From Terriglobia bacterium (GTDB taxonomy: Bacteria > Acidobacteriota > Polarisedimenticolia > Polarisedimenticolales > CAVOVZ01), in contig CAVOVZ010000027.1 in the NCBI GenBank assembly GCA_963699985.1, positions 16,128 to 80,127 of the forward strand: DNA of 64,000 nucleotides, read 5' to 3'. Under the pieces are notes generated by a model. It was not told where the DNA came from. It saw only the letters and a program-made list of their open reading frames with translations, and did not search any database. Shown piece after piece: positions 4,334-59,829 of the stretch. The position numbers and the translations under genes are program-made. How positions within the stretch are numbered: the first letter of the stretch is position 1; the number at the start of each line of letters is the position of its first letter.

Positions 4334-4615
4334 CTGATGGTAGACTCTCTCGGTCGCTGAGCGCTCGGCCGTGCGGTGGGACGCGCGTTCGCTCCGTACG
4401 AAACCACCCAGGCAATGCTTGAAAACCCAGCGGCATCAGCGAGATCCGGAGGCTCGCCTGCGCTTGACACCGCCGATTCCTCGCCGTATGAAGCATCGCG
4501 TCGAGACGATCGTTCGGATCGAGATCTGGCGGCTGCCCGGTGTGCGGCGGCGCAATCGGTGAGGTGTACAGAAAGCGCGGCGGCGTGGGAGGCTCGGATG
4601 AGGCGGCTGACGTGG

Positions 4616-4873
4616 CTCTTAGGAAACAGATGCTCTCGGGGGCTCTGCCCCCGAACCCCCGCTCCCGCCCTCCGCGACGCCGGCAGACCGGCATCGCTCC
4701 GGTTGGGCTGTTTCCTCCGGAGGTGTCGGGACGCCCGCCCCGTGCCGCCGCTCTTAAGAAACAGATGCTCGGGGGCTTTGCCCCCGAACCCCCACTCCCG
4801 CCCTCCGCGACGCCGGCGGACCGGCATCGCTCCGGTTGGGCTTGCTTCTTCCCGAGGTGTCGGGAGAACGCCC
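4616..4873. repeat. Two tandem copies of a ~135-bp element in the leader of the giant gene
   Basis: Copy A is ~4616-4737 and copy B ~4751-4873, nearly identical (ctcttaRgaaacagatgctc..gggggctYtgcccccgaaccccc..ccgcgacgccggcRgaccggcatcgctccggttgggct). Each copy contains a GGGGGC-nnn-GCCCCC hairpin. Copy B ends at the predicted GTG start. Confidence 0.85.
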
Positions 4874-7800
4874 GTGGGGCTGCTCCTAACCCTGATATTG
4901 ATCCTGCCGGCCGGTTCGGCTGCGGCCGAACTCCTGGATGCCGCCCCGCCGAGCGCCGGGGAATCGACTCCTGGTGTTCCGTGGACGGGCCCGAGGGGAA
5001 TCGTCGAGACGGTCGAGCGAATCGTCGCGCGCGAGGCCGCGTCGGCAGGCGTTCCCTCGGTGGTTCGTACGATCCTGCCCGAGCGTCTGAGCGTCCGGGC
5101 CGTTGCGCGCAAGCAGGATCCGTCGGCTCCCGCCGTGGCGCAGTGGCCCCCCGCCGAGAACGCATCCAGCGCCGCCCCGCCACTCGAGATTCTGGCTCCG
5201 CAGACCATCGGCGCCAGTTTCCTCGCCGCCAACCTCGGTGCCGCAGGGGGAGTCGTCCCCCCGGATGCGTCGGGCGACGTGGGTCCCACGCAGGTTCTGG
5301 TGGCCGTCAACGGCCGCATCCGCGTGTTCGCGAAGAACGGGACCGCGGGAGGCCTGAACGTCAGCCTCGACTCGTTCTTCGCCTCGGTGCGCAACGGGAG
5401 CGCCACGCGCGATCCCCGAGTGCGGTACGACCGGCTGTCGGCACGATGGTTCGTCGTCGCGATCAACGCAGCTCCGCCCAACCGGATCCTCATCGCGGTG
5501 AGTGACGGTTCCGCGATCACCGGGCAGTCGAGCTTCACGTTCTTCCAGTTTCAACACGACCTCGTCGGCTCGGTGCCGAACTCCGACAGTGGAGGCCTCC
5601 TCGACTACCCCACGTTGGGGGTGGACAAGAACGCGCTGTACATCGGGGGAAACGTCTCCAACGCCGCCGGCACCTCGCCGGTGGGGAGCACCGCGTTCGT
5701 CGTGAAAAAGGCGGCGCTGCTCGCGGGCACGCTCCAGGTCACCGCCTTCCGTCAGCTCAGCGACTTCGCGACGACGAACGGACCGTTCGCCCCGCAGGGA
5801 GTGGACAACGACGATCCGAACGCCTCGCAAGGGTACTTCGTGGGAGTGGACGCCCTCGCGTTCTCGCGTCTCGTCATCCGGCGCGTGACGAATCCGGGGG
5901 GTACGCCGTCTCTCTCGGCGAACCTGAATGTCTCCGTCCCCACCACCGTCTATCCGATCCTGGTGCCGCACGCGGGAGTTCCGGAGAACCGCAGGCTCGA
6001 CGCGGTGGACGACCGCCTCGTCTCCGCGGCAGTGACGAGGAACAAGATCACGGGGATCACGAGCCTCTGGACCGCCCATGCCATCGAGGTGAACGCCGCC
6101 GGCGCGGCGACGATCGGAGGGGGGCGCGACGGGGTTCGCTGGTACGAGATCCGTAACTTGACCGGCACTCCGGCCTTGTTCCAGGCCGGAACCCTGTTCG
6201 ACGGGGCGGCGACGGGCCCGAGGTTCTTCTGGATGCCCTCCGTCGCAGCGTCCGGCCAGGGAAACATGGCCATCGGCGCCAGCGCTGCAGGGACGGGTCG
6301 CTTCGCCGAGATCGCCACGGCAGGTCGGTACGCGAGCGATCCAGCCGGAAGTCTCCAGCCTCTCGCCATCGCCCAGACCAGCTCCACCTCGTATCTCGTC
6401 GAGCCGGTCGACGGCCAGCGGTGGGGCGAGTCCTCGCAGACCGTCGTCGACCCCGCGGACGACATGACCCTATGGACGTTCCAGCAGTACTGCGACGCGA
6501 CGAACTCGTGGGGGGTGCGGGCGATCGAGCTGAAGGCACCGCCGCCCGCCCTTCCGGTGAGCGCTCAGCCGTCCACCGTGTGCCAGGGGGTTTCCTCCGC
6601 GAGCGTCACCATCACCGGTTCCTCCAGTGCCGGCTCGGCGTTCTTCGACCCCGGCTCGGACCTGGGCGGGCCGGGATTCTCGAACCGGATCACGGCGTCG
6701 GTGACAGGCGGAGTCGCCGTGAACGACGCCACGTTCGTTGGCCCGACTCAGATGGTCCTCGACCTGGCGACGGAGGGGGCGTCGAGCGGCTCGAAAGCCG
6801 TCACGGTGACGAATCCGGACGGGCAGAGCGCGACGGGGACGGGGATCCTCACGGTCGTCGCCACGCCACCCGCCCCCGTGCCTTCGAACAGCGGCCCGGT
6901 GTGCGCGGGGACGGCGCTTCGACTCTCTGCGTCCACTCTCGCAGGGGCCAGCTACTCATGGACCGGTCCCGACGGCTTCGTGTCCACCGAGCAGAATCCG
7001 GTGATTGCCGTCGCGACCTCCGCGAACGCCGGGGTCTACCACGTCACCGCCGCGGTGGCGGGTTGTCCGTCCTTGCCCGCCGCCACGGTGGCGGTCGTCG
7101 CAGGGGACGGAGGTTCCTGTGACGACGGGAACCCGTGCACGACCGGAACCACCTGCTCGCAGGGGGCTTGCGTGGGCGGATCGGCGACGAGTTGCAACGA
7201 CGGAAACGCGTGCACGGACGATTCGTGCGCGCCCGCCAGCGGATGCGCGCACGTCGCCAACACCGTCCCGTGCGATGACGGCAACGCCTGCACGATCGCG
7301 GACGTCTGCGCGAACGGCGCGTGCCGTGCCGGAACGCAGCTGGGATGCGACGACGGAAACCTCTGTACGATCGACACCTGCGATGCGGTGCTGGGCTGCC
7401 TCCATACGAACAACGCGGTGGCCTGCAACGACGGAAATGCGTGTACCACCGCGGACCGCTGCTCGAACGGGGCCTGCATCGGCGGGCCGGCGGTGAGCTG
7501 CGACGACACCAACGAGTGCACCGACGATTCCTGCGATCCGGCTCTCGGATGTCGCCACACCATCCGCGCCGGCCCGTGCAGCGACGGGGACGCGTGCACG
7601 ACGGGGGACGCCTGCTCGAACGGGACGTGCGTCGGTGGGGGACCCGTGAATTGCGATGACGCCAACCCATGCACGGACGAGGCGTGCTCGCCGGCTCTCG
7701 GGTGCGTCTACGAGGAGAACGCGGCTCCGTGCAGCGACGGCAGCGCGTGCACGGTGGGGGATGTCTGCGACGCCGGCTCGTGCCAGGCGGGTCCGCCCCT

Positions 7801-10800
7801 GAATTGCGATGACGGGAACGCTTGCACCGACGACTCCTGCAATCCGCTCTCCGGATGCGTGCACGTGGCGAACTCGATCTCGTGCAGCGACGGGAACGCC
7901 TGCACCTCGGGGGATCGGTGCTCCGGTGGCACGTGCGTCAGCGGGGGGGCGCTCAGCTGCGACGACGCGAACCCTTGCACGGACGATTCGTGCGATCCGG
8001 TCTCGGGCTGCGCCCACATCAACAACACGGCTCCGTGCAGCGACGGCAGCGTCTGCACCACCGGCGACCAATGCGCGGCCGGAGACTGCGTGGGCGGCCC
8101 TCGGCTGAGCTGCGACGACGGGAACGTGTGCACCACCGATTCGTGCAACTCGGTGTCCGGCTGCCTGCACGCGAACAACACGGCGCCGTGCAACGACGGG
8201 AGCGCGTGCACGACCGGGGACGCCTGCTCGGGCGGCGCGTGCGTCGGAGGACCCGCTCCCAACTGCGACGACGGGAACGTGTGCACGACCGACTCGTGCA
8301 GTCCGGCGTCCGGCTGCCTGCACGCGAACAACACGGCGCCGTGCAGCGACGGGAACGCGTGCACCACCGCGGATACCTGCTCGGGCGGAGTGTGCGTGGG
8401 AGGCGCCGCTGCAAACTGCAACGACGGAAACGTGTGCACCGCCGATTCGTGCGTTCCTGCGACCGGCTGTGCGCACACGAACGTCACCGGCTCGTGCAGC
8501 GACGGGAGCGCGTGCACGACCGGGGACGCCTGCTCGGGCGGCGTGTGCGTCGGAGGACCCGCTCCCAACTGCGACGACGGGAACGTGTGCACGACCGACT
8601 CGTGCAGCCCGGCCTCCGGCTGCCAGCATGCGAACAACACCGCGCCGTGCAGCGACGGGAGCGCGTGCACCACCGGAGACGCCTGCGCCGCCGGGGTGTG
8701 CGTGGGCGGGCCTGCTCCCAACTGCGACGACGCAAACGTGTGCACGGCCGACTCGTGCATCCCTGCGACCGGATGCGCCCACGCGAGCGTCCCGGGGCCG
8801 TGCAGCGACGGGAACGCGTGCACGACCGGGGACGCCTGCTCGGGCGGCGCGTGTGTCGGCGGGCCCGCTCCCAACTGCGACGACGGGAACGTGTGCACGA
8901 CTGACTCGTGCAACCAGGTGTCGGGCTGCCAGCACGCGAACAACACGGCGCCCTGCAGCGACGGGAGCGCGTGCACGACCGCCGACACCTGCTCGGGTGG
9001 AGCGTGCGTGGGCGGCCCGGCTCCGAACTGCGACGACGGGAACGTGTGCACCACCGACTCGTGCATCCCCGCATCCGGTTGCCAGCATGCCAACAACACG
9101 GCGGCCTGCAGCGACGGGAACGCGTGCACGACCGGGGACACCTGTTCGGGCGGGTCGTGCGTCGGCGGCGCCCCTCCGAACTGCGACGACGGCAACGTGT
9201 GCACCGCCGACTCGTGCATCCCGGCGACGGGCTGTGCGCACGCGAACGTCACCGGATCGTGCAGCGACGGGAGCGCGTGCACGATCGGGGACAGCTGTTC
9301 GGGAGGAGTGTGCGTGGGCGGTCCCGCGCCGAACTGCGACGACGGGATCGTGTGCACGGATGACTCGTGCGATGCGGCGACGGGCTGCGTGCACGTGAAC
9401 GGCACGGCGCCGTGCAGCGACGGGAACGCGTGCACGATCGGAGATCGATGCGCCGCAGGGTCGTGCGTGGGAGGGCCGCCGCGCCGGTGCGACGATCGCA
9501 ACGTGTGCACGGACGACTCCTGCGATGCGGCGACGGGGTGCGTGCACGCGAACAACGAGGCGCCGTGCAACGACGGGAGCCTGTGTACGGTCGGGGACCG
9601 CTGCTCGGCCGGCGTCTGCTCCAGCGGGACAGCCGTGGCGTGCGACGACGGGAACGCGTGCACCACCGACTCGTGCGATCCGTCGGCCGGGTGCGTGTTC
9701 ACGGAGAGCGAAGAGCGGTGCGACGACGGGAACCCGTGCACCGATGATTCGTGCGATCCGCTTGCGGGCTGCCTGCACGCGGCGAACGCGGCGCCGTGTA
9801 GCGACGGGAGCGCGTGCAGCGGTCCGGACACCTGCTCGGGCGGAGTGTGCGTGGGCGGACCCGCCCCCAACTGCGACGACGGAAACGCGTGCACGACCGA
9901 TTCGTGCGCCCCGGCGTCCGGTTGCCAGCACGCGAACAACACGGCGCCGTGCAGCGACGGGAACGCGTGCACGACCGGCGACACATGCGCGGCCGGCGCG
10001 TGCACGGGCGGAATGGCGACGAATTGCGACGACGGGAACGTGTGCACGGACGATTCGTGCTCTCCGGCCACCGGCTGCGTGCACGCCAACAACACCGTTT
10101 CGTGCAGCGACGGGGACGCGTGCACGACCGGCGACACATGCGCGGCCGGCGCGTGCACGGGTGGAATGGCGACGAATTGCGACGACGGGAACGTGTGCAC
10201 GGCCGATTCGTGCGTTCCCGCCACGGGATGCGCGCACACGAGCGTCCCGGGGGCGTGCGACGACGGGAACGCGTGCACGACCGGCGACGCGTGCTCGGCG
10301 GGCGCGTGCGTGGGAGGGGCCGCCCCGAACTGCGACGACGGGAACGTGTGCACGACCGACTCGTGCAGCCCGGGCTCCGGCTGCCAGCATGCGCACAACA
10401 CCGCGCCGTGCAGCGACGGGAACGCGTGCACCACCGGCGATGCTTGCTCGGCCGGGGTGTGCGTGGGAGGTGCCGCTCCGAACTGCAACGACAACAACGT
10501 GTGCACGGCCGATTCGTGCATCCCGGCGACGGGTTGCGCGCACACGAACGTCGCCGGATCGTGCAGCGACGGGAGCGCGTGCACGACGGGCGATACCTGC
10601 TCGGGTGGGGTGTGCGTGGGAGGCGCCGCTCCGAACTGCGACGACGGGAACGTGTGCACCACCGACTCGTGTTCTCCGGCTACGGGCTGCGTTCACGCGA
10701 ACAACCCGGCGCCGTGCAGCGACGGGAATGCGTGCACGACCGGGGATGCCTGCTCGGGCGGGGTGTGCGTGGGAGGGGCCGCCCCGAACTGCGACGACGG

Positions 10801-12790
10801 CAACGTGTGCACGTCCGACTCGTGCGTCACGTCCACGGGCTGCGTTCACGCGAACATCACGGGGTCGTGCAGCGACGGGAACGCGTGCACCACCGGCGAC
10901 GCCTGCTCGGCCGGGGTCTGCGTGGGCGGCGCGGCTCCGAACTGCAACGATAGCAACGTGTGCACGGACGATTCGTGCTCTCCGGCCACCGGCTGCGTGC
11001 ACGCGAACAACACCGTCTCGTGCAACGATGCGAACGCGTGCACGACGAATGATGCCTGCTCGAACGGTGCATGCGTGGGCGGCGCCGCTGCGAACTGCGA
11101 CGACGCGAACGTCTGCACGACCGACTCCTGCGTTCCGGCCACGGGTTGCAAGCACGTGAACGTCGCGGGGTCGTGCAGCGACGGGAACGCGTGCACGACG
11201 AATGACGCCTGCTCGGCGGGAGTGTGCGTGGGCGGCGCCGCTCCGAACTGCAGCGACGGCAACGTGTGCACGACCGACTCGTGCAATCCGGCCACCGGTT
11301 GCGTGAACGCGAACAACACCCTCTCGTGCAACGATGCGAACGCGTGCACGACCGGCGACGCCTGCTCGGGGGGCGTGTGCGTGGGCGGCCCCCCCCCGAA
11401 CTGCGACGACGGGAATCTCTGCACCACCGACAGTTGCGTTCCGGCTTCCGGCTGCGCGCACGCGAACAACACGCTTGCGTGCGAAGACGGAAACGCCTGC
11501 ACCACCGGAGACCGGTGCAACGGCGGGTCGTGCAAGGCGGGGACGACGATCAGCTGCAACGACTCGAACCCGTGCACCGACGATTCGTGCAACACGACGA
11601 CCGGCTGCGTGAACGCGAACAACACCAGGACGTGCAACGACGGCAGCGCCTGCACCACGTCGGATCGCTGCGCGGGCGGCGTGTGCGTGGGAGGGCCGGC
11701 GCCGGACTGTGACGACAACAAGATCTGCACGGACGACCTGTGCAGCCCCTCCTCGGGCTGCCTCCACCTGAACAACACCGCGCCGTGCAGCGACGGGAAC
11801 GCGTGCACGACGGGCGACCAGTGCTCGAACGGGTCGTGCGCGAGCGGCGGGCCGACGAACTGCGACGACGCGAACGTGTGCACGACCGACTCCTGCGTTA
11901 CGTCCACGGGCTGCAGGCACGTGAACGTCGCGGGGTCGTGCAGCGACGGGAACGCGTGCACGACAGGCGATACCTGCTCCGCCGGCGTCTGCGTGGGAGG
12001 CGCAGCCCCGAACTGCAACGACGGAAACGCGTGCACGAACGACTCGTGCGACCCGGCGTCGGGATGCGTGAACGCGAACAACACGGCGCCGTGCAGCGAC
12101 GGGAACGCCTGCACGACGGGCGACGCCTGCGCGCAAGGCGCCTGCGTCGGCGGCCCACCCGAAAGCTGCGACGACGGGAATCCGTGCACGAACGACTCGT
12201 GCGACGTCGCTTCGGGCTGCGTCCACGCGAACAACACGGCGCCGTGCAGCGATGGAAACGCGTGCACGACGGCGGATGCGTGCTCGAACGGGACCTGCGT
12301 CGGCGGCGCTCCTCCGATGTGCGACGACGGAAACCCGTGCACGGACGATGCGTGCCTTCCCGGCACCGGCTGCGTGAACGCGAACAACCAGGCGCCGTGC
12401 GACGACCGGGACGACTGCACGGGCGGCGACACCTGCTCGGCCGGAGCGTGCTCCGGGGTTCCACTCCCGCATGACGAGGTTACCGGCCTGCGCCTCGGGC
12501 CGGACAAGTCCGTGCTGACGTGGTCGGGCGGAGCGGATGTCCGTCTGGACACCGTCTACGAGGTGCCGCGCGGACTTCTCGGCGAGCTCCCGGTGGGGAC
12601 CGGAGCCCGAGAGACCTGCGTTGCCTCGGGAATCGCGGCGGTCACGGCGACGGATTCCACGATCCCCGACGCGGGGACCGGGTACTGGTACCTGGTTCGC
12701 GCGCGGGACGGGTGCGGGATCGGAACCTACGGGCACGCCGCGGTGCGGGGAAGCCCGACCGCCGAGCGCGTAACGTCCGCATGCCCGTGA
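4874..12790 (+). CDS. Giant secreted Cys-rich repeat protein (propeller-like N-domain, Ig-like segments, ~35 bipartite Dicty_CTDC-like repeats, C-terminal CP module)
   Basis: The ORF is open from 4376, but 4376-4873 is an R/C/P-rich repeat element. GTG at 4874 follows GGGAGA and gives the hydrophobic leader GLLLTLILILPAGSAAA. An in-frame GTG at 4742 is an alternative start. The repeats are CDDGNxCTxDSCxPxxGCxHxNNTxxC + SDGxACTxGDxCxxGxCVGG. Confidence 0.85.
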   Translation: MGLLLTLILILPAGSAAAELLDAAPPSAGESTPGVPWTGPRGIVETVERIVAREAASAGVPSVVRTILPERLSVRAVARKQDPSAPAVAQWPPAENASSAAPPLEILAPQTIGASFLAANLGAAGGVVPPDASGDVGPTQVLVAVNGRIRVFAKNGTAGGLNVSLDSFFASVRNGSATRDPRVRYDRLSARWFVVAINAAPPNRILIAVSDGSAITGQSSFTFFQFQHDLVGSVPNSDSGGLLDYPTLGVDKNALYIGGNVSNAAGTSPVGSTAFVVKKAALLAGTLQVTAFRQLSDFATTNGPFAPQGVDNDDPNASQGYFVGVDALAFSRLVIRRVTNPGGTPSLSANLNVSVPTTVYPILVPHAGVPENRRLDAVDDRLVSAAVTRNKITGITSLWTAHAIEVNAAGAATIGGGRDGVRWYEIRNLTGTPALFQAGTLFDGAATGPRFFWMPSVAASGQGNMAIGASAAGTGRFAEIATAGRYASDPAGSLQPLAIAQTSSTSYLVEPVDGQRWGESSQTVVDPADDMTLWTFQQYCDATNSWGVRAIELKAPPPALPVSAQPSTVCQGVSSASVTITGSSSAGSAFFDPGSDLGGPGFSNRITASVTGGVAVNDATFVGPTQMVLDLATEGASSGSKAVTVTNPDGQSATGTGILTVVATPPAPVPSNSGPVCAGTALRLSASTLAGASYSWTGPDGFVSTEQNPVIAVATSANAGVYHVTAAVAGCPSLPAATVAVVAGDGGSCDDGNPCTTGTTCSQGACVGGSATSCNDGNACTDDSCAPASGCAHVANTVPCDDGNACTIADVCANGACRAGTQLGCDDGNLCTIDTCDAVLGCLHTNNAVACNDGNACTTADRCSNGACIGGPAVSCDDTNECTDDSCDPALGCRHTIRAGPCSDGDACTTGDACSNGTCVGGGPVNCDDANPCTDEACSPALGCVYEENAAPCSDGSACTVGDVCDAGSCQAGPPLNCDDGNACTDDSCNPLSGCVHVANSISCSDGNACTSGDRCSGGTCVSGGALSCDDANPCTDDSCDPVSGCAHINNTAPCSDGSVCTTGDQCAAGDCVGGPRLSCDDGNVCTTDSCNSVSGCLHANNTAPCNDGSACTTGDACSGGACVGGPAPNCDDGNVCTTDSCSPASGCLHANNTAPCSDGNACTTADTCSGGVCVGGAAANCNDGNVCTADSCVPATGCAHTNVTGSCSDGSACTTGDACSGGVCVGGPAPNCDDGNVCTTDSCSPASGCQHANNTAPCSDGSACTTGDACAAGVCVGGPAPNCDDANVCTADSCIPATGCAHASVPGPCSDGNACTTGDACSGGACVGGPAPNCDDGNVCTTDSCNQVSGCQHANNTAPCSDGSACTTADTCSGGACVGGPAPNCDDGNVCTTDSCIPASGCQHANNTAACSDGNACTTGDTCSGGSCVGGAPPNCDDGNVCTADSCIPATGCAHANVTGSCSDGSACTIGDSCSGGVCVGGPAPNCDDGIVCTDDSCDAATGCVHVNGTAPCSDGNACTIGDRCAAGSCVGGPPRRCDDRNVCTDDSCDAATGCVHANNEAPCNDGSLCTVGDRCSAGVCSSGTAVACDDGNACTTDSCDPSAGCVFTESEERCDDGNPCTDDSCDPLAGCLHAANAAPCSDGSACSGPDTCSGGVCVGGPAPNCDDGNACTTDSCAPASGCQHANNTAPCSDGNACTTGDTCAAGACTGGMATNCDDGNVCTDDSCSPATGCVHANNTVSCSDGDACTTGDTCAAGACTGGMATNCDDGNVCTADSCVPATGCAHTSVPGACDDGNACTTGDACSAGACVGGAAPNCDDGNVCTTDSCSPGSGCQHAHNTAPCSDGNACTTGDACSAGVCVGGAAPNCNDNNVCTADSCIPATGCAHTNVAGSCSDGSACTTGDTCSGGVCVGGAAPNCDDGNVCTTDSCSPATGCVHANNPAPCSDGNACTTGDACSGGVCVGGAAPNCDDGNVCTSDSCVTSTGCVHANITGSCSDGNACTTGDACSAGVCVGGAAPNCNDSNVCTDDSCSPATGCVHANNTVSCNDANACTTNDACSNGACVGGAAANCDDANVCTTDSCVPATGCKHVNVAGSCSDGNACTTNDACSAGVCVGGAAPNCSDGNVCTTDSCNPATGCVNANNTLSCNDANACTTGDACSGGVCVGGPPPNCDDGNLCTTDSCVPASGCAHANNTLACEDGNACTTGDRCNGGSCKAGTTISCNDSNPCTDDSCNTTTGCVNANNTRTCNDGSACTTSDRCAGGVCVGGPAPDCDDNKICTDDLCSPSSGCLHLNNTAPCSDGNACTTGDQCSNGSCASGGPTNCDDANVCTTDSCVTSTGCRHVNVAGSCSDGNACTTGDTCSAGVCVGGAAPNCNDGNACTNDSCDPASGCVNANNTAPCSDGNACTTGDACAQGACVGGPPESCDDGNPCTNDSCDVASGCVHANNTAPCSDGNACTTADACSNGTCVGGAPPMCDDGNPCTDDACLPGTGCVNANNQAPCDDRDDCTGGDTCSAGACSGVPLPHDEVTGLRLGPDKSVLTWSGGADVRLDTVYEVPRGLLGELPVGTGARETCVASGIAAVTATDSTIPDAGTGYWYLVRARDGCGIGTYGHAAVRGSPTAERVTSACP
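7118..12455 (+). repeat. In-frame array of bipartite cysteine-rich repeats (~44 aa unit)
   Basis: I counted 35 occurrences of the SCxxxxGC(x)H/N..C half-unit by hand. It resembles the Dictyostelium CTDC-type repeat (CxDxNxCTxDxC..GC). The periodic DNA also creates long spurious antisense ORFs. Confidence 0.9.
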
Positions 12791-15953: not shown

Positions 15954-17378
15954 ATGCGAATCGACGTCGTCCCGTGCATCGTAGGGTGCCTTGTTGCGAG
16001 CCTCTTCGGGCTCCCCGATTCGCCACGTGCCGCCGCGGACGACGAGCCTCCGACGGAGGTGGGAATCCTGCTGGGAGCTGGATTCGTCGATTCCGACGTG
16101 GCGGGCTACGATTCCGGGTCCGGCGAGATCGGGCCGGTGCTCGGAGTTCGGGCTGCACGACGGTTCGGGCGATCGATCGTCTGGTTCGCCGATTCGTTCA
16201 CGTCGCGCTACGACACGACTCGAGCGCCGGGGAAGGTGGAGGGCAATGCCACCCGTACCGGGTTGGAGTACCTGTTTCCCTCGACGACGCGCGCACGATG
16301 GTTCGTGAGCGCCGCAGCCGGCGTGTTCGAGGCCGACTACGAGATCCCCATCGACTTCGACCGCCCCTTGGTGTCCGTGGGCTTCGGCAAGCGGCGGAGC
16401 CTCGCAAGCCCCGGCTCGTTTCGATGGGAGGTTCGCGTCGATCGGGTGCTGGGCGAGGACGGGATCGAAGGGCGGGATGTCGTGAACGCGCAGGCGCTCG
16501 TCGGCTGGTCGCTCGGACTGCGATTCCGGCGCCAGACGGTGGATACCGACGCGGACGGGGTGGTCGACCAAGCCGACCAATGCGCCGGCACCCCGTCCGG
16601 GGCCGTCGTGGACAGCTCGGGGTGTCCCATCGATACCGACCGGGACGGGGTGTGGGACGGGCAGGACCAGTGCCCGGAGACTCCAAGAAACGTCCGGGTC
16701 GACGCGAGCGGGTGTTTCACGGACGAGGACGGAGATGGGATCGCGGACGGGATCGATCGGTGCGCGACCACGCCTCGAGGCGCGGTGGTGGATTCCCGCG
16801 GCTGTCCCATGGACAGCGACGGGGATGGTGTCCCGGACGGGGTGGATCTGTGCCCGGACACGCCGCGTGACGTGATGGTCGGCATGAGCGGGTGCACGCT
16901 CGACACCGACGGGGACGGCGTTCCGAACGGTCGCGACCGTTGCCTGGACACGCCGAAGGGAACTCCCGTCGACGAGATCGGCTGCCCCGCCGCTGCCCCG
17001 CGCAAGCCCAAGTCGGAGGCATTGTTCTCGGACTCGAAGAACACCCTCATTCTCGAAGGAGTCAGTTTCCGGCTCAATCGCGCGGAGCTGACCCCCGAGT
17101 CCCTGGTCGTCCTCGACCGGATCGCGGCGAGCCTGGCGGACTGGCCCGAGGTGCGGGTCGAGGTCGGCGGGCACACCGACTCCAGCGGGAGCGATGCCCT
17201 CAACCAGCGCCTGTCGGAAGCTCGCGCCGAGGCCGTGCGAGCCTACCTCTTGCGTGCGGGAGTCGCCGCGTCGCGGCTCGAGGCGCGCGGGTACGGCGAG
17301 ACCAGGCCGATCGACGACAACGGGACCGCAGACGGGCGCGCCCGGAACCGCCGCGTGGAATTCACGAAGGTGGAGTGA
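15954..17378 (+). CDS. OmpA-family protein with thrombospondin type-3 (TSP3) repeats
   Basis: Repeated DTDxDGVxDxxDxCPxTP units. C-terminal OmpA domain (VEVGGHTDSSGSDALNQRLSEARAEAVRAYL...GYGETRPI...NRRVEF). Confidence 0.9.
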   Translation: MRIDVVPCIVGCLVASLFGLPDSPRAAADDEPPTEVGILLGAGFVDSDVAGYDSGSGEIGPVLGVRAARRFGRSIVWFADSFTSRYDTTRAPGKVEGNATRTGLEYLFPSTTRARWFVSAAAGVFEADYEIPIDFDRPLVSVGFGKRRSLASPGSFRWEVRVDRVLGEDGIEGRDVVNAQALVGWSLGLRFRRQTVDTDADGVVDQADQCAGTPSGAVVDSSGCPIDTDRDGVWDGQDQCPETPRNVRVDASGCFTDEDGDGIADGIDRCATTPRGAVVDSRGCPMDSDGDGVPDGVDLCPDTPRDVMVGMSGCTLDTDGDGVPNGRDRCLDTPKGTPVDEIGCPAAAPRKPKSEALFSDSKNTLILEGVSFRLNRAELTPESLVVLDRIAASLADWPEVRVEVGGHTDSSGSDALNQRLSEARAEAVRAYLLRAGVAASRLEARGYGETRPIDDNGTADGRARNRRVEFTKVE

Positions 17379-23299: not shown

Positions 23300-24955
23300 T
23301 GTAGTGCGCCAGCGATTCTGCCGGTCTACCCCCCCTCCGGCACGTAGCTGGCTCCGTTTCAGGCGGCTCTCCTCTTTCTACCTCCCCCCAGTACCCCCCC
23401 GGAGCAGGATCATGCGCGATGCCCCGGTCCTACGGAACCTCTCTCTTCCGAAGGGATGGCCCGCCCGCGTCCGTTCCTCGACCGTGCAGGCAATCTCCCT
23501 CGCCCTCTTCTCCCTCACCTTCGCCCGAGGCGTCGCCGCCAACAGCATTCACAAGAGGATGCGCCTCCAGGCGGAGGTCGACCGGCTCCGGCAGGAAGCC
23601 GCTCTCCTCCGAGAAGAGTCGCGCATCAAGGACTCGCGGATGCTTCGAATCCCGGCCCAGCGAAGGCCACACGACCCTCCCACCGAACGCCTCGCGATCC
23701 TCGAGCTTCGGGCGGCGCGGGCTTGGTCCATCGCGGAAACTGCGAGGCGGCTCCTTGTGACGCCGCCGACGGTGACCTCGTGGATGAGTCGCCTCGATGA
23801 CGCGGGCCCGGACGCACTCGTCCGACTGACCGAGCCGGTCAACCGCTTCCCCGAGTTCGTCGGCTACATGGTCCGTCGGCTCGAGACCCTCTGCCCAACG
23901 ATGGGAACGAGGAAGATTGCCCAAGTCCTTTGTCGAGCGGGGCTCCACCTCGGCGCCACGACCGTTCGCAGGATGCTCGCCGAGTCCGACCGACGGCGAT
24001 CGAAGTCCGTCGGAGCCGAGTCCTCGCGCCGGATCCACACCACCCGGCCCAACGAGGCGTGGAACGTGGACCTCACGACGGTACCCATCGGAAGCGGGTT
24101 CTGGGTACCCTGGCTTCCGTGGGCCCTTCCCCAGCGCTGGCCGTTCTGCTGGTGGGTCGCCGTCGTGGTTGACCACTACTCCCGCCGGATGATGGGTGTG
24201 GCCGCGTTCCGCTCCGTGCCGACCTCCGCGGCCGTCCGCTCGTTCCTCGATCGCGTCATTCGGAAGGTGGGGATGGCGCCCAGGTATCTCATCTCGGACC
24301 AGGGCAGACAGTTCGGCGCGATCGGATTCCGGCGTTGGTGTCGGCGCCGCGGGATCCACCAGCGGTTCGGGGCCGTCGGCAAGTACGGGAGCATCGCGGT
24401 CGTGGAACGTCTGATCCGTACCATGAAGAACGAGTGCACGAGGAGAGTCCTCGTGCCCCTGCCCCAGGCCGCGTTCCAACGGGAGTTGTCGATCTTCGCT
24501 GATTGGTACAACGGCCAGCGCCCTCATGCCAGCCTGAACACCCGCACCCCCGACGAGGTGTACTTCGGACGCCGTCCCGCTTGCCGGATGCCGCGATTCG
24601 AACCCCGGTCTCGGTGGCCCCGACGCTCGCCCTGCGCCGCGCCGTGCACGTTGATTCGCCGAAGGCCTGGCGTTGTCGTCGAGCTCGACGTGAGTCGGAG
24701 GTGCGGCCGGAAGCATCTCCCGGTCGTCGGACTCCGTCGCGTCGCGTAGACACGGCGTTCGATGGAACGACGCGCTTGCCGCGTCCGACGCCCTCGTGTG
24801 CCCGCGACGCTCCACGGGGCGGCATCGCACGCTCACGACGCCCGTGTCGGGTTCATCCGGGTCTCTCGCAATCGCCTTGACCGTCCACGATCACGTTCTC
24901 CCTCTCGTTCCGAACGCCGAAACCGCGCCTGTACTTTCCCTGGCGCGCTTCACCA
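23300..24955 (+). mobile_element. IS481-family-like insertion sequence (full copy)
   Basis: Left end TGTAGTGCGCCAGCGATTC (23300). Right end ..CCCTGGCGCGCTTCACCA (~24955), imperfectly inverted. Single rve-domain transposase ORF. Confidence 0.7.
23412..24749 (+). CDS. IS481-like transposase (HTH + rve integrase core)
   Basis: Start MRDAPVLRNLSLPKGW. DDE core: WNVDLTTV, LISDQGRQF, VVERLIRTMKNE. Ends ..NGQRPHASLNTRTPDEVY. Confidence 0.85.
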   Translation: MRDAPVLRNLSLPKGWPARVRSSTVQAISLALFSLTFARGVAANSIHKRMRLQAEVDRLRQEAALLREESRIKDSRMLRIPAQRRPHDPPTERLAILELRAARAWSIAETARRLLVTPPTVTSWMSRLDDAGPDALVRLTEPVNRFPEFVGYMVRRLETLCPTMGTRKIAQVLCRAGLHLGATTVRRMLAESDRRRSKSVGAESSRRIHTTRPNEAWNVDLTTVPIGSGFWVPWLPWALPQRWPFCWWVAVVVDHYSRRMMGVAAFRSVPTSAAVRSFLDRVIRKVGMAPRYLISDQGRQFGAIGFRRWCRRRGIHQRFGAVGKYGSIAVVERLIRTMKNECTRRVLVPLPQAAFQRELSIFADWYNGQRPHASLNTRTPDEVYFGRRPACRMPRFEPRSRWPRRSPCAAPCTLIRRRPGVVVELDVSRRCGRKHLPVVGLRRVA

Positions 24956-26652: not shown

Positions 26653-26811
26653 CTACGGGCAGGCCGTCGTGCCCCACACGAGGCACTCCGGATTCCCCTG
26701 CGGACGCTCGGCGCAGTTTCCGTCGAGCCCGTAGGAGCCTTCCCTCGTGACCGTTCTCGGAACCACGAGGTAGTACGTGTTTCGCTCCCTGGGGGTGAAT
26801 GTCCAAACTGC
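26653..26811 (-). pseudogene. Orphan fragment of the CP-type C-terminal module
   Basis: Minus-strand translation ..[52 protein letters not shown]-stop matches the YWYLVR..GxGTYG..CP pattern. No upstream coding body. Confidence 0.45.
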
Positions 26812-27336
26812 ATTTTCGTCGGCAATGCGGACCAGGCCGACACCGATTCCGACGGCCGCGGAAACGCATGCGACAACTGTCCGTTGAACGCGAACCCGAT
26901 GCAGAACGACATCGATGGGGACCACGTGGGCGATGCCTGCGACAACTGCCCCCTCAGCTACAACACCGACCAGCGAGACCTCGACCACGATGGCGAGGGC
27001 GATCTCTGCGACCTCGACGACGGCGTCATCCTGATCCTCTTCGCCGACCCCAACTACATCGAGTGGCAGGAGGAAGCGGGGTTTACCGCGTGGAACGTGA
27101 ACGAGGGGGACCTGGACGTGCTGAAGGCGGCGGGCCTCTACACCCAGGTACCGGGTTCCAATCCGCTCGCCGACCGGCACTGCGGTGAGGCGGCGCCATG
27201 GGTGTAGGACTTCGACATGCCACCCGTGGGCAAGACGGTCTTCTCGCTGGTCGCGGGCGTTGCGAACGGGGTCGAGGGGAGCCGGGGCCAGGACAGCCAT
27301 GGAGTCGAGAGGCCGAACGCGAATCCGTGTCCGTAA
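26812..27336 (+). pseudogene. TSP3-repeat + CP-module protein fragment with in-frame TAG
   Basis: [51 protein letters not shown].. with no start codon or signal peptide (the upstream part is IS debris). TAG at 27205-27207, then in-frame DFDMPPVGKTVFSLVAGVANGVEGSRGQDSHGVERPNANPCP-TAA. Confidence 0.6.
27259..27336 (+). repeat. CP-tail DNA relic, copy 1
   Basis: gttgcgaacggggtcgaggggagccggggccaggacagccatggagtcgagaggccgaacgcgaatccgtgtccgtaa. Closely matches 29966-30043 and partially matches 27789-27848 and 59333-59392. Confidence 0.8.
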
Positions 27337-28379: not shown

Positions 28380-29213
28380 GTGAAGAGCGCAACACAGAGG
28401 GCCTCGCCTGGATTCGTCCTGCTGGCCATTCCGTTCCTCGTGATAGGAAGTGTGGCCTTTGCAGAAAACATCGATCCTGGCAACGAAGGTTCCCGGTACG
28501 CCTGGGCAGAGAACTTGGGCTGGATCAACCTTCAACCGAACGGCCCTGGTGGACCCGGCGTGCAGGTTTCGGATTCGGACCTGACCGGTTGGGCCTGGTC
28601 AGAGAACGCGGGATGGGTCAGCCTGTCGTGCACGAACCGTTCGTGTTCCGTCCGAAGCTACGGCGTGACGAACGACGGGTGTGGCACCCTCGCGGGCCAC
28701 GCGTGGTCGGAGAACGCCGGCTGGATCAACTTCGCGCCCACGGGGGCGGGGGTCGTGATCGATCCCAAGACCGGGATGTTCAGCGGTCGGGCCTGGTCAG
28801 AGAACGCCGGTTGGATCACGTTCTCGTCGGCCGGTCCCAACCCGTACCGGGTGGCGACCGCTTGGCGTCGGGCCATCCCGGCGGGAAGGCCAGGTCTTGC
28901 CGCGGACAAGGCTGGCGGCAGCAACGTGCTCCTCTCGTGGACCGCGGTGTCCGGAGCGACCTCGTACGACGTGGTCCGCGGCGGGGTTAGCGATCTGCTG
29001 AACTCGAACGGTAGCTTTCAGTCCGCGACGCAGACGTGCATCGCCAACACGACCGATACGTCTTTCACCACGGGCGGGACGCCGAGTGAGGGCGACGGCT
29101 ATTGGTTCCTCGTCCGCGGCCACAATTGCGGTGGCGCCGGGACCTATGACGACGGAACCCAGGTTGGCTCGCGCGACGCTGGCATCACCGCGTCGGGCAA
29201 TGACTGCCCCTGA
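28380..29213 (+). CDS. Secreted GW-repeat protein with CP-type C-terminal module
   Basis: GTG after AGGAGG, then a signal peptide. Five AW(A/S)EN(L/A)GWI(N/S/T) repeats. C-terminus LLSWTAVSGATSYDVVRGG..GDGYWFLVRGHNCGGAGTYD..SGNDCP-stop. Confidence 0.85.
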   Translation: MKSATQRASPGFVLLAIPFLVIGSVAFAENIDPGNEGSRYAWAENLGWINLQPNGPGGPGVQVSDSDLTGWAWSENAGWVSLSCTNRSCSVRSYGVTNDGCGTLAGHAWSENAGWINFAPTGAGVVIDPKTGMFSGRAWSENAGWITFSSAGPNPYRVATAWRRAIPAGRPGLAADKAGGSNVLLSWTAVSGATSYDVVRGGVSDLLNSNGSFQSATQTCIANTTDTSFTTGGTPSEGDGYWFLVRGHNCGGAGTYDDGTQVGSRDAGITASGNDCP

Positions 29214-53900: not shown

Positions 53901-54082
53901 GCTGTTCCCTTCCCCAACCCGACCGAATCCGTCCGGTTTCCCGCTTCTCCGTCGTCGTGTTTGGGTGTAGAACCTCCCCAGGTTTGCCACCCGAGGGGGG
54001 TAGCCATGGCCCGCCTGTTCGCAGCCTCCATCCTCATCGTCGCCGTTCTTCCCGCCCTGGCCAGCGAGCCGGGGCAGCCGCT
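53901..54082 (+). repeat. 5' leader/signal-peptide cassette, copy A
   Basis: About 185 bp collinear with 59482-59662 (ggtttcccgcttct.., gggtgtaSaac, atggcccgYctgttcgcagcc..gccgttctYcccgccctggccagcgagcYggggcagcc). Confidence 0.85.
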
Positions 54083-54854
54083 GGATTGCAGCGACTGGGT
54101 GTTCGTGGAGCCGGGGCTGTCCTGCACCACTTGGATTCCGAACCCGTGTGACGAACGATATCCACCATGCGCCACGTCTGGCATACGGGAGGCGTTCGAC
54201 AACCAGGGGCGCATGTACTACACGCGAATGATCCTCAGTATCCGCGTCGAGAGTTGCGGCGGCATCGATCGTGTTGAACTCCGCCGCTACGACGGCGCGT
54301 CGGACCAGTTAGTCGCTTACATCGAGTCGCGTTGTGTCGATGGTTCTGGCTCGGATTCCGTAGCCGGTGGCGATGACATCCTCTTTGATGACAAGGCCGG
54401 GCGTTTCATAACCCTCCTACGAGACTACTGCTACGGCCCGTCTTGCAACTACTCTCCCGGCCATTGGAAGGCTGCGCTCGGCGGTTTCGCGACGACATTT
54501 GACGTTCTCCACACCTACACACCACAAGCCGCGCTGGGGTTCCGCGTCCCCTACATGCCCGAAGGCCTCCCCGCCGCCGACCACTTCGACACCTACACCG
54601 GCGACATCGCCACGCTCGGGGACTTCTCCCAGGCGCAGCCGCTGCAGTGCGACTACCCGACCGCACCGCCGAGCGTGGGCGACTACCTCACCGTGAACGA
54701 CAGCCTCCCGAATCCCGTGGTCGGGAGGGGCCGCTACTACGTCACCGCCGCCACGTACCAGGGACAGACCCGATACGGGCGCAAGGGATTCCGAGGCCAG
54801 TTGTCCGGTCGCGATCCCGCGCTCCTGCCCGCCTGCATCCCGCCCGGACCCTGA
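54006..54854 (+). CDS. Secreted Cys-rich protein with divergent CP-type C-terminal module
   Basis: Signal peptide MARLFAASILIVAVLPALASEPGQP. C-terminus HFDTYTGDIATLGDF..C..NDSLPNPVVGRGRYYVTAATYQGQTRYG..LLPACIPPGP-stop. Confidence 0.75.
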   Translation: MARLFAASILIVAVLPALASEPGQPLDCSDWVFVEPGLSCTTWIPNPCDERYPPCATSGIREAFDNQGRMYYTRMILSIRVESCGGIDRVELRRYDGASDQLVAYIESRCVDGSGSDSVAGGDDILFDDKAGRFITLLRDYCYGPSCNYSPGHWKAALGGFATTFDVLHTYTPQAALGFRVPYMPEGLPAADHFDTYTGDIATLGDFSQAQPLQCDYPTAPPSVGDYLTVNDSLPNPVVGRGRYYVTAATYQGQTRYGRKGFRGQLSGRDPALLPACIPPGP

Positions 54855-55423: not shown

Positions 55424-57740
55424 CAGGGCTCCTGACCTGATCTGAGATTTCCTACGATTTTGCTTGCATCGAGACGGGATGTGGCATATCATTAGTGCCA
55501 CATATGAATACCAAATCGCTTCTCCCCCGCCTGCCTCTGCTTCCTCCAGCCGCGGAGATCGTGAGCACGGACCTCGCGGTCGTCCGCGAAGACGGCAAGG
55601 TGGTCTTGTTCAACGCTGGAGGCCCGATCTACGAGTGTCGTCAGGATGACCGGGTCAGCGTGCGTCTTGGTGTGGCCATCGCGGCGGCGCTGCGGCTGGC
55701 GCCGGTCACCGCGTTGGCCGCGACATTCGGTATGGATCGCGGAACGTTGCATCGCGACCGGGCCAAGCTCGCAGCGGGCGGCATCGAAGCGCTTCAGCCG
55801 AAGAAGCGTGGACCGAAGGGACCGTTCAAGCTGGATGCCACAGCACTTCGGAGCGCGCAGCGCGCCCTCGATTCCGGCGCTTCGCAGCGCGAGAGCGGAA
55901 AGCAGGCAGGGGTGAGTCACTTCGCGATCTATCACGCGATTCAGAAGGGCCTGCTGAGTCGGCCGGAGAAGCGAGCAGCCGTTCCTGTGATTGCTGGTGC
56001 TTCGACCGACGATACGCTGATCCGGTCTGGCGTGCGGGCCGCGGAGGATCAATCGTGCGAAACCGGGGTGGCGGTCAAGCGCACCGCAGAGCGAGCGCTG
56101 GCGCGATCCGGCCTGCTCGCCGAGGCCGCACCGGTGTTCGAGGCGGCAGAAGGTGTTCCTGGCGCAGGGGTGTTGCTGGCGCTGCCGGCGCTGCTCGAGG
56201 AGGGATTGCTCGAGGTCGGAACGAAAGTGTATGAGGGATTGCGCAACGGGTTCTTCGGCCTTCGCTCGGTTTTGCTGACGTTCGCGATGATGGCCCTCTT
56301 GCGGATCAAGACACCCGAGCAACTCACCGAACACGCCCCTGGTGAGCTCGGTCGTCTGTTGGGCCTCGACCGTGCACCCGAGGTCAAGACGTTGCGTCGC
56401 AAGCTGCGCGAGATGGGCGAGCGTGGACTGGCGCGGACGTTCATGCGGCTGCTCACCGAGCGCTGGGCACGTGCGACCCCGAGAGAGCTCGCGTTGCTCT
56501 ACGTCGACGGCCATGTCCGCCCGTATCACGGGCGGACCCAGGTGCTCCCCAAGCACCACGTCCAGCAACGGGGCCGGCCGATGCCGGGGACCAAGGATTT
56601 CCACGTCAACGATCGTCGCGCCGACCCGCTGTTCTTCGTCACTGCGGAGGCGACCGAGAGTCTCCTCGCGATGCTGGACTCGACCCTGCTGCCTGAGGTG
56701 CGACGTCTGGTCGGGCCCGGTCGGCGCGTGACGATCACCTTCGATCGGGAGGGCTGGAGCCCTGAGCGGTTCGCCAAGTGGAAGGACGAGGGCTTCGACG
56801 TCCTCACCTACCGGAAGGGGCAGTCGTCGCGGTGGCAGGAGCGGTTCTTCCGCACGGTCGCGGGGACGGTGGGTGGGGAGGAGGTCGAGTACCGGCTGGC
56901 CGAACGCACCGTGACGCTGTCCAACGGTCTGCGCGTCCGCGAGATCCGGCGCCTCACGGACGACGGCCATCAGACGGCGGTCATCACGACGAGCGAGAAG
57001 CTCCCGCTACTCGCGGTCGCGCACCGGATGTTCTCGCGGTGGCGGCAGGAAAACTTCTTCCGTTACATGCGGCACGAGTTTGCGCTCGATCACCTCTGTA
57101 CCTACGAGGTCGAACCCGCCGATCCCAAGCGCGAGGTGGCTCACCCGGAACGCGCCGCGCTGACGAAGCGACTCGCCAGGGTTCGAAGCGATCTGGCGCG
57201 GCTCGAGAACAAACGCTTCGACATGCGGTCCGGAGGACGGGTCCGTGTCGGCCAGCGCAGGCTGTCCGAGAAAGAGCTGGACCAGGTGATCGCGCGGCGA
57301 GACGAGGAGATCGATCGCTTGGAGCTCCGGATCGCCGCGCTGCCGAAGCGGGTGACGATCGATTCCATTCTCGACCCGTCCGAGATCGTGCAGCTCGAGC
57401 GTGAGCGCAAGGTGCTCGTCGATGCCATCAAGCTGATCGCCTACCGCGCCGAGTCCGCGCTGGCCCGACTGATGGCACCTCTCCTTGCTCGACACGACGA
57501 GGAGACGAGGAAGTTCCTGAAAACGGTTTTCCAAGCCACGGCTGACATCATTCCGGACCGAGGTGCACGCCGTCTCACGGTGCGCTTCCACGGCTTGGCC
57601 AACCCCAGGATGACCCGCGCTCTCGGCGAGCTCTGCGCCTTGGTCAACGAACATGACGCTCTGTACCCGGGCACGAACCTCCGGCTCCATTTCGACGCGC
57701 CGGTGTCGCAGGAATGATCCCGCTCAGGTCAGGAGCCCTG
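55424..57740 (+). mobile_element. 2.3-kb insertion sequence (IS4-superfamily-like, unclassified)
   Basis: 17-bp inverted repeats CAGGGCTCCTGACCTGA (55424-55440) and TCAGGTCAGGAGCCCTG (57724-57740). 5-bp direct repeat CAATG (55419-55423 and 57741-57745). Excision in silico recreates the repeat-junction sequence seen at 58015-58047. Confidence 0.9.
55495..57717 (+). CDS. DDE transposase of the 2.3-kb IS
   Basis: 740 aa (an ATG at 55504 is also possible). N-terminal HTH regions. LLYVDGHVRPY, ITFDREGWS, FSRWRQENFFRYMRHEFALDHL (DDE/YREK-like). Confidence 0.85.
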   Translation: MPHMNTKSLLPRLPLLPPAAEIVSTDLAVVREDGKVVLFNAGGPIYECRQDDRVSVRLGVAIAAALRLAPVTALAATFGMDRGTLHRDRAKLAAGGIEALQPKKRGPKGPFKLDATALRSAQRALDSGASQRESGKQAGVSHFAIYHAIQKGLLSRPEKRAAVPVIAGASTDDTLIRSGVRAAEDQSCETGVAVKRTAERALARSGLLAEAAPVFEAAEGVPGAGVLLALPALLEEGLLEVGTKVYEGLRNGFFGLRSVLLTFAMMALLRIKTPEQLTEHAPGELGRLLGLDRAPEVKTLRRKLREMGERGLARTFMRLLTERWARATPRELALLYVDGHVRPYHGRTQVLPKHHVQQRGRPMPGTKDFHVNDRRADPLFFVTAEATESLLAMLDSTLLPEVRRLVGPGRRVTITFDREGWSPERFAKWKDEGFDVLTYRKGQSSRWQERFFRTVAGTVGGEEVEYRLAERTVTLSNGLRVREIRRLTDDGHQTAVITTSEKLPLLAVAHRMFSRWRQENFFRYMRHEFALDHLCTYEVEPADPKREVAHPERAALTKRLARVRSDLARLENKRFDMRSGGRVRVGQRRLSEKELDQVIARRDEEIDRLELRIAALPKRVTIDSILDPSEIVQLERERKVLVDAIKLIAYRAESALARLMAPLLARHDEETRKFLKTVFQATADIIPDRGARRLTVRFHGLANPRMTRALGELCALVNEHDALYPGTNLRLHFDAPVSQE

Positions 57741-58595
57741 CAATGGGGTGGGCCCTACCTTCCGGGTGAGTACCCCAACGAAGCAACGTTGGTTCTTCCC
57801 GTAACCGAGGATCCACTCGCACCCCCGGCACAGGGTCTGCTGGCTACAGGTTATGTGCTTACCGTCAGGCCCGGTCGCGACGGCGCTCCGGGTCTCAACC
57901 GACTCGAAAGAAACGAAGACCCAGTTGAGTTGGCTGTGACTGGCATCGTCCATGACGCGGAATGGAAGACTGCCCCGCTCACAGTCCGAATCGTCGACCA
58001 GAACGGTGTGCCGATTCCCGCGTCACAATGGGGTGGGCCCTACCTTCCGGGTGAGTACCCCAACGAAGCAACGTTGGTTCTTCCCGTAACCGAGGATCCA
58101 CTCGCACCCCCGGCACAGGGTCTGCTGGCTACAGGTTATGTGCTTACCGTCAGGCCCGGTCGCGACGGCGCTCCGGGTCTCAACCGACTCGAAAGAAACG
58201 AAGACCCAGTTGAGTTGGCTGTGACTGGCATCGTCCATGACGCGGAATGGAAGACTGCCCCGCTCACAGTCCGAATCGTCGACCAGAACGGTGTGCCGAT
58301 TCCCGCGTCACAATGGGGTGGGCCCTACCTTCCGGGTGAGTACCCCAACGAAGCAACGTTGGTTCTTCCCGTAACCGAGGATCCACTCGCACCGCCAGCT
58401 CAGGGGCAACTGGCAGTTGGATATGCACTCACGAGTAAGCCCGGATTGAACGGAATGTCGGGCACGAGTTACCACTTGTTTCGCGCCGAGGAACCCCAAG
58501 AACTGACTTCCGCAGGTCTTGTGAAGAATCTCGAGTGGGAGACATCGAGCGGAGAGCTTCGAGTTGTCGACGTCATTGAGCACGAGGTTCTTGGG
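57741..58595 (+). repeat. 285-bp (95-aa) tandem repeat, 3 copies
   Basis: Units start at 57741, 58026 and 58311. The first two read identical. The third diverges after ~85 bp. An older divergent unit precedes the IS. Confidence 0.9.
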
Positions 58596-59770: not shown

Positions 59771-59829
59771 TTCCACTTGCTTCTGGCAGGCTCCTGACTC
59801 ACCGCGCGACAGCGCAGGGAGGTCCGGCG

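Follow-up and report, generated by a model that had tools for sequence, protein, structure and literature searches.

In a 64,000-nt stretch of a Terriglobia bacterium genome (assembly GCA_963699985.1, contig CAVOVZ010000027.1, positions 16,128 to 80,127; hereafter the window, with a GC content of 63-71%), several exported proteins with otherwise unrelated bodies end in the same C-terminal module. Our analysis identifies this module as a lineage-specific, unnamed acidobacterial subfamily of the fibronectin type III (FN3) superfamily for which neither Pfam nor NCBIfam holds a model. Judged from sequence profiles and predicted structures, it is one complete FN3 domain of ~105 residues, made up of strands A-F, an insertion between strands C and C′, and a special tail that usually closes with Cys-Pro directly before the stop codon. 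It may be the means by which this lineage tethers the proteins that it exports. So far the evidence shows a new subfamily within a known fold, whose role may also be new, and no new mechanism yet.

Three copies of the module in the window are intact. Translation of the coordinates given for the module copies in an initial annotation of this DNA yielded the same module sequences as reported there. Copy 1 (12470..12787, plus strand; subtype a, ..ELPVGxGxxETC..GYWYLVRARDGCGIGTYG..ERVTSACP and stop; hidden Markov model (HMM) E 3e-19) is the C-terminal domain of a 2804-residue Cys-rich-repeat protein encoded by the open reading frame (ORF) 4376..12790, which has a signal-peptide-like start near 4859. 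Copy 2 (28890..29210, plus strand; subtype b, ..GSFQSATQTC..GYWFLVRGHNCGGAGTYD..SRDAGITASGNDCP and stop; HMM E 8.5e-40) closes a 277-residue protein (ORF 28380..29213) with a signal peptide and four GW-type repeats of the form W-S-E-N-x-G-W-I-x-F, which have no Pfam match; orthologues of this protein are found at 60-87% identity. Copy 3 (58931..59245, plus strand; subtype a, ..NSNVCP and stop; HMM E 2e-22) lies in ORF 58787..59248 (P0001) and belongs to a gene that is interrupted by an insertion sequence, with the signal-peptide N-terminal piece at ~55026-55450, the transposase at 55495..57717 and the repeat body at 57714..58790. The three copies are 28-46% identical among themselves, share 24 invariant positions and all end in Cys-Pro-stop.

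An HMM seeded with these three sequences matched only the intact copies themselves in the six-frame translation of the window. Against a larger HMM, built from 144 database modules, the other sites claimed by the initial annotation gave weak but collinear fragments as they stand; two of them were recovered as decayed copies after repair, when scored within 1201 six-frame segments. By these sequence criteria the window holds five confirmed copies (three intact, two decayed) and two unproven ones. The central claim of the initial annotation, a shared C-terminal module on signal-peptide proteins with unrelated bodies, is thus borne out by the intact copies (E 3e-19 to 8.5e-40), whereas its count of at least six stands for five, with the sites at 54560 and at 26653 on the minus strand remaining unproven.

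None of the three intact copies matched a relevant Pfam or NCBIfam model (June 2026) at E<=10, and not even Pfam fn3 (PF00041) or other FN3- and Ig-type models were matched at this threshold; one copy drew two unrelated Pfam matches at chance level (E 0.09 and 0.23). The relationship to FN3 emerged when profiles were compared with each other. With hhalign, the 144-module profile aligned to an fn3 profile of 80 repeats, taken from 16 giant multi-repeat proteins of which four were Pfam-checked as fn3 arrays, with a probability of 97.1% and E 7.5e-11 over 80 columns. The aligned part begins at strand A and extends through strand F to the FG loop; the module segment L..L..GGxFxxATxxC faces a gap in fn3, and the last ~22 module residues are left unaligned. 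The module profile itself also pulls fn3 arrays, in the form of giant multi-hit proteins, from the database. In line with this, AlphaFold2 predicted an FN3 beta-sandwich both for copy 1 (predicted local distance difference test (pLDDT) 80.1, predicted template modelling score (pTM) 0.75) and for copy 2 (pLDDT 90.3, pTM 0.81). Both models show strands A, B, C, C′, E and F in FN3 order, and in the copy 2 model a helix at residues 106-113 replaces strand G. For each of the two models the top 50 Foldseek matches in the PDB were all FN3 domains, the best being the CtXyl5A Fn3 domain (E 7.8e-4, 30% identity), followed by 3mpc and chitinase A1; a sequence-profile search of the PDB likewise returned FN3 domains throughout, at non-significant E-values of 0.4-1. 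What the initial annotation had described as an FN3-like strand followed by other pieces is therefore better read as a single complete domain, and the structure prediction that it had proposed as a check returned this fold. The parts specific to the family are an 11-residue C-C′ insertion and a 20-28-residue tail in place of strand G, each with one invariant Cys; in subtype b this tail is predicted to be helical (SRDAEIAAS).

Database searches indicate that the module is a large family and not a local duplication. A word-indexed profile search retrieved 30 proteins, with the module at the C-terminal end in 30/30, flush with it in 29/30 and with a Cys-Pro end in 26/30. Searching 1.84 billion cluster representatives exhaustively with the profile yielded 8878 matches at E<=1e-3, the weaker part of which includes some share of ordinary fn3 arrays, 3601 at E<=1e-10 and 145 at E<=1e-30. 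Among the best 156 proteins with one or two modules, the module sits at the extreme C-terminus in 147 and ends in Cys-Pro in 140. All 19 loci found in GTDB representative genomes come from metagenome-assembled genomes (MAGs) of Acidobacteriota, several of them labelled Candidatus Polarisedimenticolia, and in each of these loci the module ends the ORF. Some MAGs yielded more than one locus, and several copies occur per MAG and per locus. The few matches with names at NCBI are all from Acidobacteria or Polarisedimenticolia, one of them being annotated as a ‘MopE-related protein’. A metagenome scan confirmed 144 relatives, from which the best 80 loci were kept; the module is present in 19/19 genome loci and in 98 of the 102 loci overall. 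With thousands of clusters and an unbroken series of acidobacterial genome loci, the similarity is clearly not confined to the window; confinement to this locus was the outcome that the initial annotation had named as speaking against it. The family falls into two main subtypes, a (ELPVGxG..ETC...GTYG..ERxTxxCP) and b (GGxFxxATxxC...NCGGxGTYDSG..SQVGSRDAEIAASxxxCP), both represented in the window, and a subtype-b-like tail was seen in 128 of the 144 sampled modules. Our literature searches found no description of such a domain.

Conservation analysis of the 144 modules showed that the Cys in the insertion and the terminal Cys are each present in 100%, the terminal Pro in 95% and a further Cys in the FG loop in 91%. 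The FG-loop Cys co-occurs with a Cys located just upstream of strand A (71/3/5/4, Fisher p = 0.002). The FN3 topology brings the start of strand C′ to the same pole of the domain as the C-terminus, and the FG loop to the opposite pole, together with the N-terminus, so that both pairings would be geometrically reasonable. A disulfide between the insertion Cys and the terminal Cys may hold the tail against the sandwich like a staple, another may join the FG-loop Cys to the Cys just upstream of strand A, and the final Pro would merely cap the chain, for example against exopeptidases, rather than form part of a cleavage or attachment motif. In modules that lie internally or in tandem (P0036, P0052, P0116, P0143 and P0146) the Cys is retained and the Pro is not, the corresponding positions reading CP-G.., CG, CH, CR or CT, and some variants at the chain end read CQ, CL, CR, CS or CE. 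Because internal copies keep the Cys and lose the Pro, the Cys appears to be structural and the Pro a feature of the chain end, with no joint ‘CP’ recognition motif. Thus, the terminal Cys-Pro, which in the initial annotation had suggested recognition or processing, probably belongs to a disulfide staple and not to a processing site. Besides the Cys residues, a Trp, a Leu and an Arg in strand F are 92-100% conserved. Matching to the fn3 pattern Y-x-I-x-V-x-A-x-N places these three side chains on the solvent-facing side of the predicted strand, where they could serve as a packing surface for the stapled tail or as a conserved face for binding.

The complete module proteins carry Sec-type signal peptides in front of unrelated bodies. 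Pfam searches of 87 members revealed a MopE-type Cys motif directly upstream of the module in 50, Kelch propellers in ~30, cohesin domains in 7 and DUF7453 in 6, whereas apiosidase, M64 peptidase, PIG-L, beta-helix, TSP3, PKD or FG-GAP domains were found in single members. The MopE motif (PF11617) lies upstream of the module, e.g., at residues 1027-1056 of the beta-helix protein of the window, and not inside it; these upstream matches account for the name ‘MopE-related protein’ used at NCBI. Six members match NCBIfam TIGR05002, a ‘choice-of-anchor’ NxxGxxAF repeat, three of them with scores of 185-195 bits against a cutoff of 50, and single members match choice_anch_Q, choice_anch_X and the MtsC family. 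Two bodies carry a galactose-binding domain associated with the type IX secretion system (T9SS). Surface proteins are termed ‘choice-of-anchor’ when related proteins are anchored at the C-terminus by different means, namely LPXTG, PEP-CTERM or T9SS (10.1101/2023.03.06.531300). By analogy, the module appears to occupy the place of those anchors on choice-of-anchor bodies, which supports, without proving, an anchor-like role. NCBIfam matches to myxosortase- and rhombosortase-dependent M36 peptidases were rejected; they are local, cover the Cys-rich linker only and reach 45-64 bits against cutoffs of 1500-1700.

We also clustered the genes neighbouring the module in the 102 loci (813 kb in total, flanks up to 10 kb). 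No protease, transpeptidase or outer-membrane channel recurs near the module in these loci, and these neighbours offer no candidate for the phylogenetically co-occurring protease or transferase that the initial annotation had suggested looking for. In the first 21 loci the sole shared neighbour is a Ser/Thr protein kinase from a ubiquitous paralogue family. Over all 102 loci, recurrence is limited to this kinase (8 loci), a DUF1566/Lcl_C gene that accompanies copy 2 orthologues only, and synteny within a single orthologue group; two further contigs showed unrelated neighbours. Since the kinase family is so common, its proximity to module genes in 8 of the 102 loci is probably due to chance.

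What the module does can be read in several ways. The reading that we put first, and to which we give an even chance, is that the module, including the stapled structure described above, serves as a shared handle for retention at the cell surface or in the matrix. Many Sec-exported multi-domain proteins of Acidobacteriota (Candidatus Polarisedimenticolia and relatives) are Cys-rich and close with this module, which would act there as a common non-covalent handle binding one shared partner, as dockerins and other domain-type anchors do, rather than as a tripartite sorting signal that is cleaved off. This role, which we consider less certain than the staple, is suggested by the near-constant C-terminal place of the module behind Ca- and Cys-rich stalk repeats and by the unrelated bodies that it follows, i.e., Kelch propellers, beta-helices, cohesins, hydrolases and choice-of-anchor repeats. 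Several observations weigh against the retention-handle reading. Neither a binding partner nor a receptor or processing enzyme turned up in the window or the 102 loci; about 6% of the modules are internal or in tandem, so that a free C-terminus is not strictly needed; in copy 2 of the window the FG-loop Cys is present but its upstream counterpart is missing; and only a weak argument accounts for the near-invariance of the terminal Pro. Moreover, FN3 domains of bacterial exoenzymes are often mere spacers. The module might have no targeting role at all. It would then be an FN3 domain that serves as a stable end-cap or spacer, or that binds glycans or polymers in a generic way; it would have spread by domain shuffling, and its last position would simply result from being appended together with a Cys-rich linker cassette. 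The clear FN3 membership, the best structural matches to precisely such exoenzyme domains (CtXyl5A Fn3, 3mpc and the chitinase A1 FN3), the internal and tandem copies, the lack of a partner gene in the 102 loci and the joint travelling with the MopE motif in 50 of 87 members all fit such a passive domain. We nevertheless regard it as rather unlikely, as a position at the extreme C-terminus in 94% and a final Pro in 95% are unusual for a spacer FN3, the module is present on choice-of-anchor bodies, and conservation is strong across paralogues on unrelated bodies, including the predicted solvent-facing Trp, Leu and Arg of strand F.

Two further explanations assign the module a more active part. 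It could tag cargo for an export or attachment pathway that is dedicated to it and so far undescribed, as a functional analogue of the C-terminal domain (CTD) of T9SS substrates. In that case a translocon in the outer membrane would recognize the module, and a sortase-like peptidase might remove or exchange it. Its T9SS CTD-like size, beta-sandwich fold, strictly C-terminal place, many paralogues per genome, unrelated exported bodies and lineage restriction, together with the choice-of-anchor bodies and the two T9SS-associated galactose-binding domains, would suit this explanation. In contrast, T9SS CTD models (Por_Secre_tail PF18962, TIGR04183 and the type-B CTD) and other sorting models gave no match at E<=10, no T9SS CTD appeared among the top 50 Foldseek matches, no genes for T9SS machinery (PorU/V, SprA and others) were found in the window or the 102 loci, and internal and tandem copies exist; that a disulfide-stapled domain would be folded in the periplasm is neutral and counts neither way. 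We consider this analogy to the T9SS doubtful. The more specific version, in which the module is the cargo tag of an Acidobacteriota-specific display or secretion pathway and the Cys-Pro end forms part of the recognition by a receptor, translocon or transpeptidase, seems unlikely to us, if marginally less so; if true, it would represent a new ‘choice of anchor’, a disulfide-stapled C-terminal domain of FN3 type. Finally, the extreme C-terminal Cys-Pro could be functional by itself and be recognized, cleaved or modified, for instance by lipidation or by covalent attachment via the Cys thiol or the Pro carboxylate. The motif is retained in most of the top 156 proteins and of the 144 modules, with the stop codon always directly after it. 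However, the terminal Cys is invariant jointly with a mid-domain Cys in the family-specific insertion, internal copies swap the Pro, the chain ends listed above depart from it, no candidate modifying enzyme lies nearby in the window or the 102 loci, and we know of no sorting chemistry that uses a terminal Cys-Pro. A function of the Cys-Pro end on its own thus appears highly improbable.

The two decayed copies of the window are divergent members of the family. Copy 4 (62830..63149, plus strand; E 1.6e-6 after repair) is frameshifted near 63005-63015 and ends with ..DPPCP and stop in the +2 frame; it forms the end of a 1166-residue beta-helix/TSP3/MopE protein (ORF 59623..63123). The gene of this protein contains a tandem duplication of ~865 nt (60209-61074 and 61070-61935), visible as cross-matches of ~96% identity with the related assembly L001. 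Copy 5 (27010..27336, plus strand; E 2.8e-4 upon read-through) carries an in-frame TAG at 27205-27207, ends with ..NANPCP and stop, and sits in a gene remnant after TSP3 repeats (~26800-27000, TSP_3 match).

Two more sites are doubtful. Copy 6 (54560..54851, plus strand; HMM E 0.046) makes up the C-terminal half of the signal-peptide protein encoded by ORF 53961..54854. Examined for membership in the module family, it was found to belong to a separate, highly conserved protein family. This family matched 97 database clusters at up to 78% and mostly 55-75% identity, and its members end in Cys plus 0-6 residues instead of Cys-Pro. Profile-profile comparison with the module gave a weak match (hhalign E 0.007, probability 5%), and copy 6 may be a distant relative of the module. 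The copy 6 family is without annotation and has the pattern FRVPYMPEG..ADHFDTYxGxL..QAQPLQCxYP..VGDYLTV..GxGRYYVTAxTYQGQTRYGRK..LSGRDPAxLPxC; one of its members comes from a Terriglobia/Acidobacteriia MAG. Fragment 7 (26653..26811, minus strand; HMM E 0.49), an orphan 3′ end, shows resemblance to copy 5 only, within strand F and the tail (EGSxGxD..ERPxxNPxC), and its DNA shows a weak 22-nt inverted match to 27306-27327.

Several features of the module genes and their surroundings deserve mention. The giant protein that carries copy 1 (4376-12790) consists of dozens of tandem, Dicty_CTDC-like Cys-rich repeats of the form C-x-D-G-N-x-C-T-x-D-x-C, which in combination with the high GC content give rise to spurious ORFs of up to 1926 residues on the opposite strand. 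The last Cys-rich repeat and the linker (12410..12469, plus strand) lie directly 5′ of copy 1 and are the source of its upstream Cys. Divergent from this gene, positions 18-2753 on the minus strand encode a 911-residue Ser/Thr protein kinase with an N-terminal zinc ribbon. Only 28 nt past the copy 2 gene starts a gene for a signal-peptide protein with an Lcl C-terminal/DUF1566 domain (29241-29909), and the pair formed by 28380-29213 and 29241-29909 is kept in 21 loci. In the copy 3 gene, the inserted transposase is of the Transposase_29 type (55495..57717), and the repeat body contains three near-identical tandem repeats of 95 residues (285 nt) at 57741-58405. An independent assembly, L001, shows the same structure of insertion and repeats at 99.5% identity. 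The ORFs of 358 and 153 residues at this locus overlap by ATGA, where a further frameshift may be hidden. A 952-residue protein with Kelch, MopE, TSP3 and Dicty_CTDC repeats (18298-21156), a type of body that usually ends in the module, ends instead in a different domain of ~210 residues (from ..DPDTSTISSSFNSTRIPAGKYIWFN..) with no Pfam or NCBIfam match.

Besides the Ser/Thr kinase, the window encodes a TonB-type ORF and an OmpA/TSP3 protein and contains a large block of mobile-element remnants. A match to the PorE model by the OmpA-family protein at 15954..17378 runs through its OmpA domain only (80 bits against a cutoff of 600). The region at 30-50 kb was rejected as a secretion locus, its content being mobile-element debris: the segment 30128-49653, with a lower GC content of 63-66%, encodes a TIR-domain protein, a DDE transposase, a fragment of a phage terminase large subunit, a D12 N6-adenine methyltransferase, a DnaB-like helicase and a large serine recombinase. 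Outside this segment, at 23304..24749, lies an rve integrase.

Acidobacteriota are abundant in soils and sediments and largely uncultured, and how they retain or expose large secreted proteins is poorly known. The module marks a large set of exported proteins, with thousands of clusters and several copies per genome, among them Kelch proteins, beta-helix enzymes, cohesin proteins and peptidases. As no Pfam or NCBIfam model exists, it is left blank or labelled ‘MopE-related’ in current annotation, and a family model would improve annotation and define a candidate secretome of the lineage. Moreover, the module with its conserved Trp/Leu/Arg face and its Cys-Pro end offers a handle for finding a possible anchoring or sorting partner. 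If it turns out to be only a stabilized FN3 end-cap, a useful definition of a new subfamily would result, and no new mechanism.

Compared to known domains and signals, the module shares its fold with canonical fn3 (PF00041; 3mpc, CtXyl5A 5g56 and Bacillus chitinase A1 1k85), as well as the fn3 signature of a Trp in strand B, Y-x-V in strand C and Y-x-V-x-A-x-N-x-x-G in strand F; Foldseek comparison with bacterial FN3 structures gave TM-scores of ~0.5-0.6, root-mean-square deviations of 2.5-3 Å and up to 30% identity. In contrast to canonical fn3, it has the C-C′ insertion with its invariant Cys, a loop or helix tail in place of strand G, up to two putative disulfides and the Cys-Pro end, and whereas ordinary fn3 domains are internal or in tandem, the module is almost always the last domain. 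Like LPXTG, PEP-CTERM, MYXO-CTERM, GlyGly-CTERM and CGP-CTERM, it occupies the very C-terminal end of exported proteins; Cys is likewise present in MYXO-CTERM and CGP-CTERM, and some of the bodies that carry the module belong to choice-of-anchor families that use such tripartite signals elsewhere. However, it is a folded domain of 105 residues ending in Cys-Pro and lacks their arrangement of motif, transmembrane helix and basic tail. Over the final 40 residues of the 144 modules, Kyte-Doolittle hydropathy averaged over 15 residues peaks at no more than 1.08, the last 8 residues contain 0.13 Lys/Arg on average, and no NCBIfam CTERM model matched the module at E<=10. These values agree with the initial annotation, which had noted neither a transmembrane helix nor a basic tail and had set the module apart from known sortase, exosortase, MYXO-CTERM and T9SS signals.

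Two systems resemble the module more in how it is deployed. Type I dockerins (PF00404) are C-terminal non-catalytic modules on diverse secreted enzymes that tether these via one common partner, as is proposed here for the module. A dockerin is a Ca-binding duplicated helix-loop, whereas the module is a predicted FN3 beta-sandwich and matches no dockerin model in Pfam; cohesin domains occur in 7 of the 87 module proteins, and a cohesin-type partner for the module itself is only hypothetical. The T9SS CTD differs from the module in showing no sequence similarity to it, and the module contains Cys and is hosted by Acidobacteriota and not by Bacteroidota or the Fibrobacteres-Chlorobi-Bacteroidetes (FCB) group. 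Both, however, are beta-sandwiches of ~80-110 residues that are placed strictly at the C-terminus of many unrelated exported bodies within one lineage, and they may work in a similar way.

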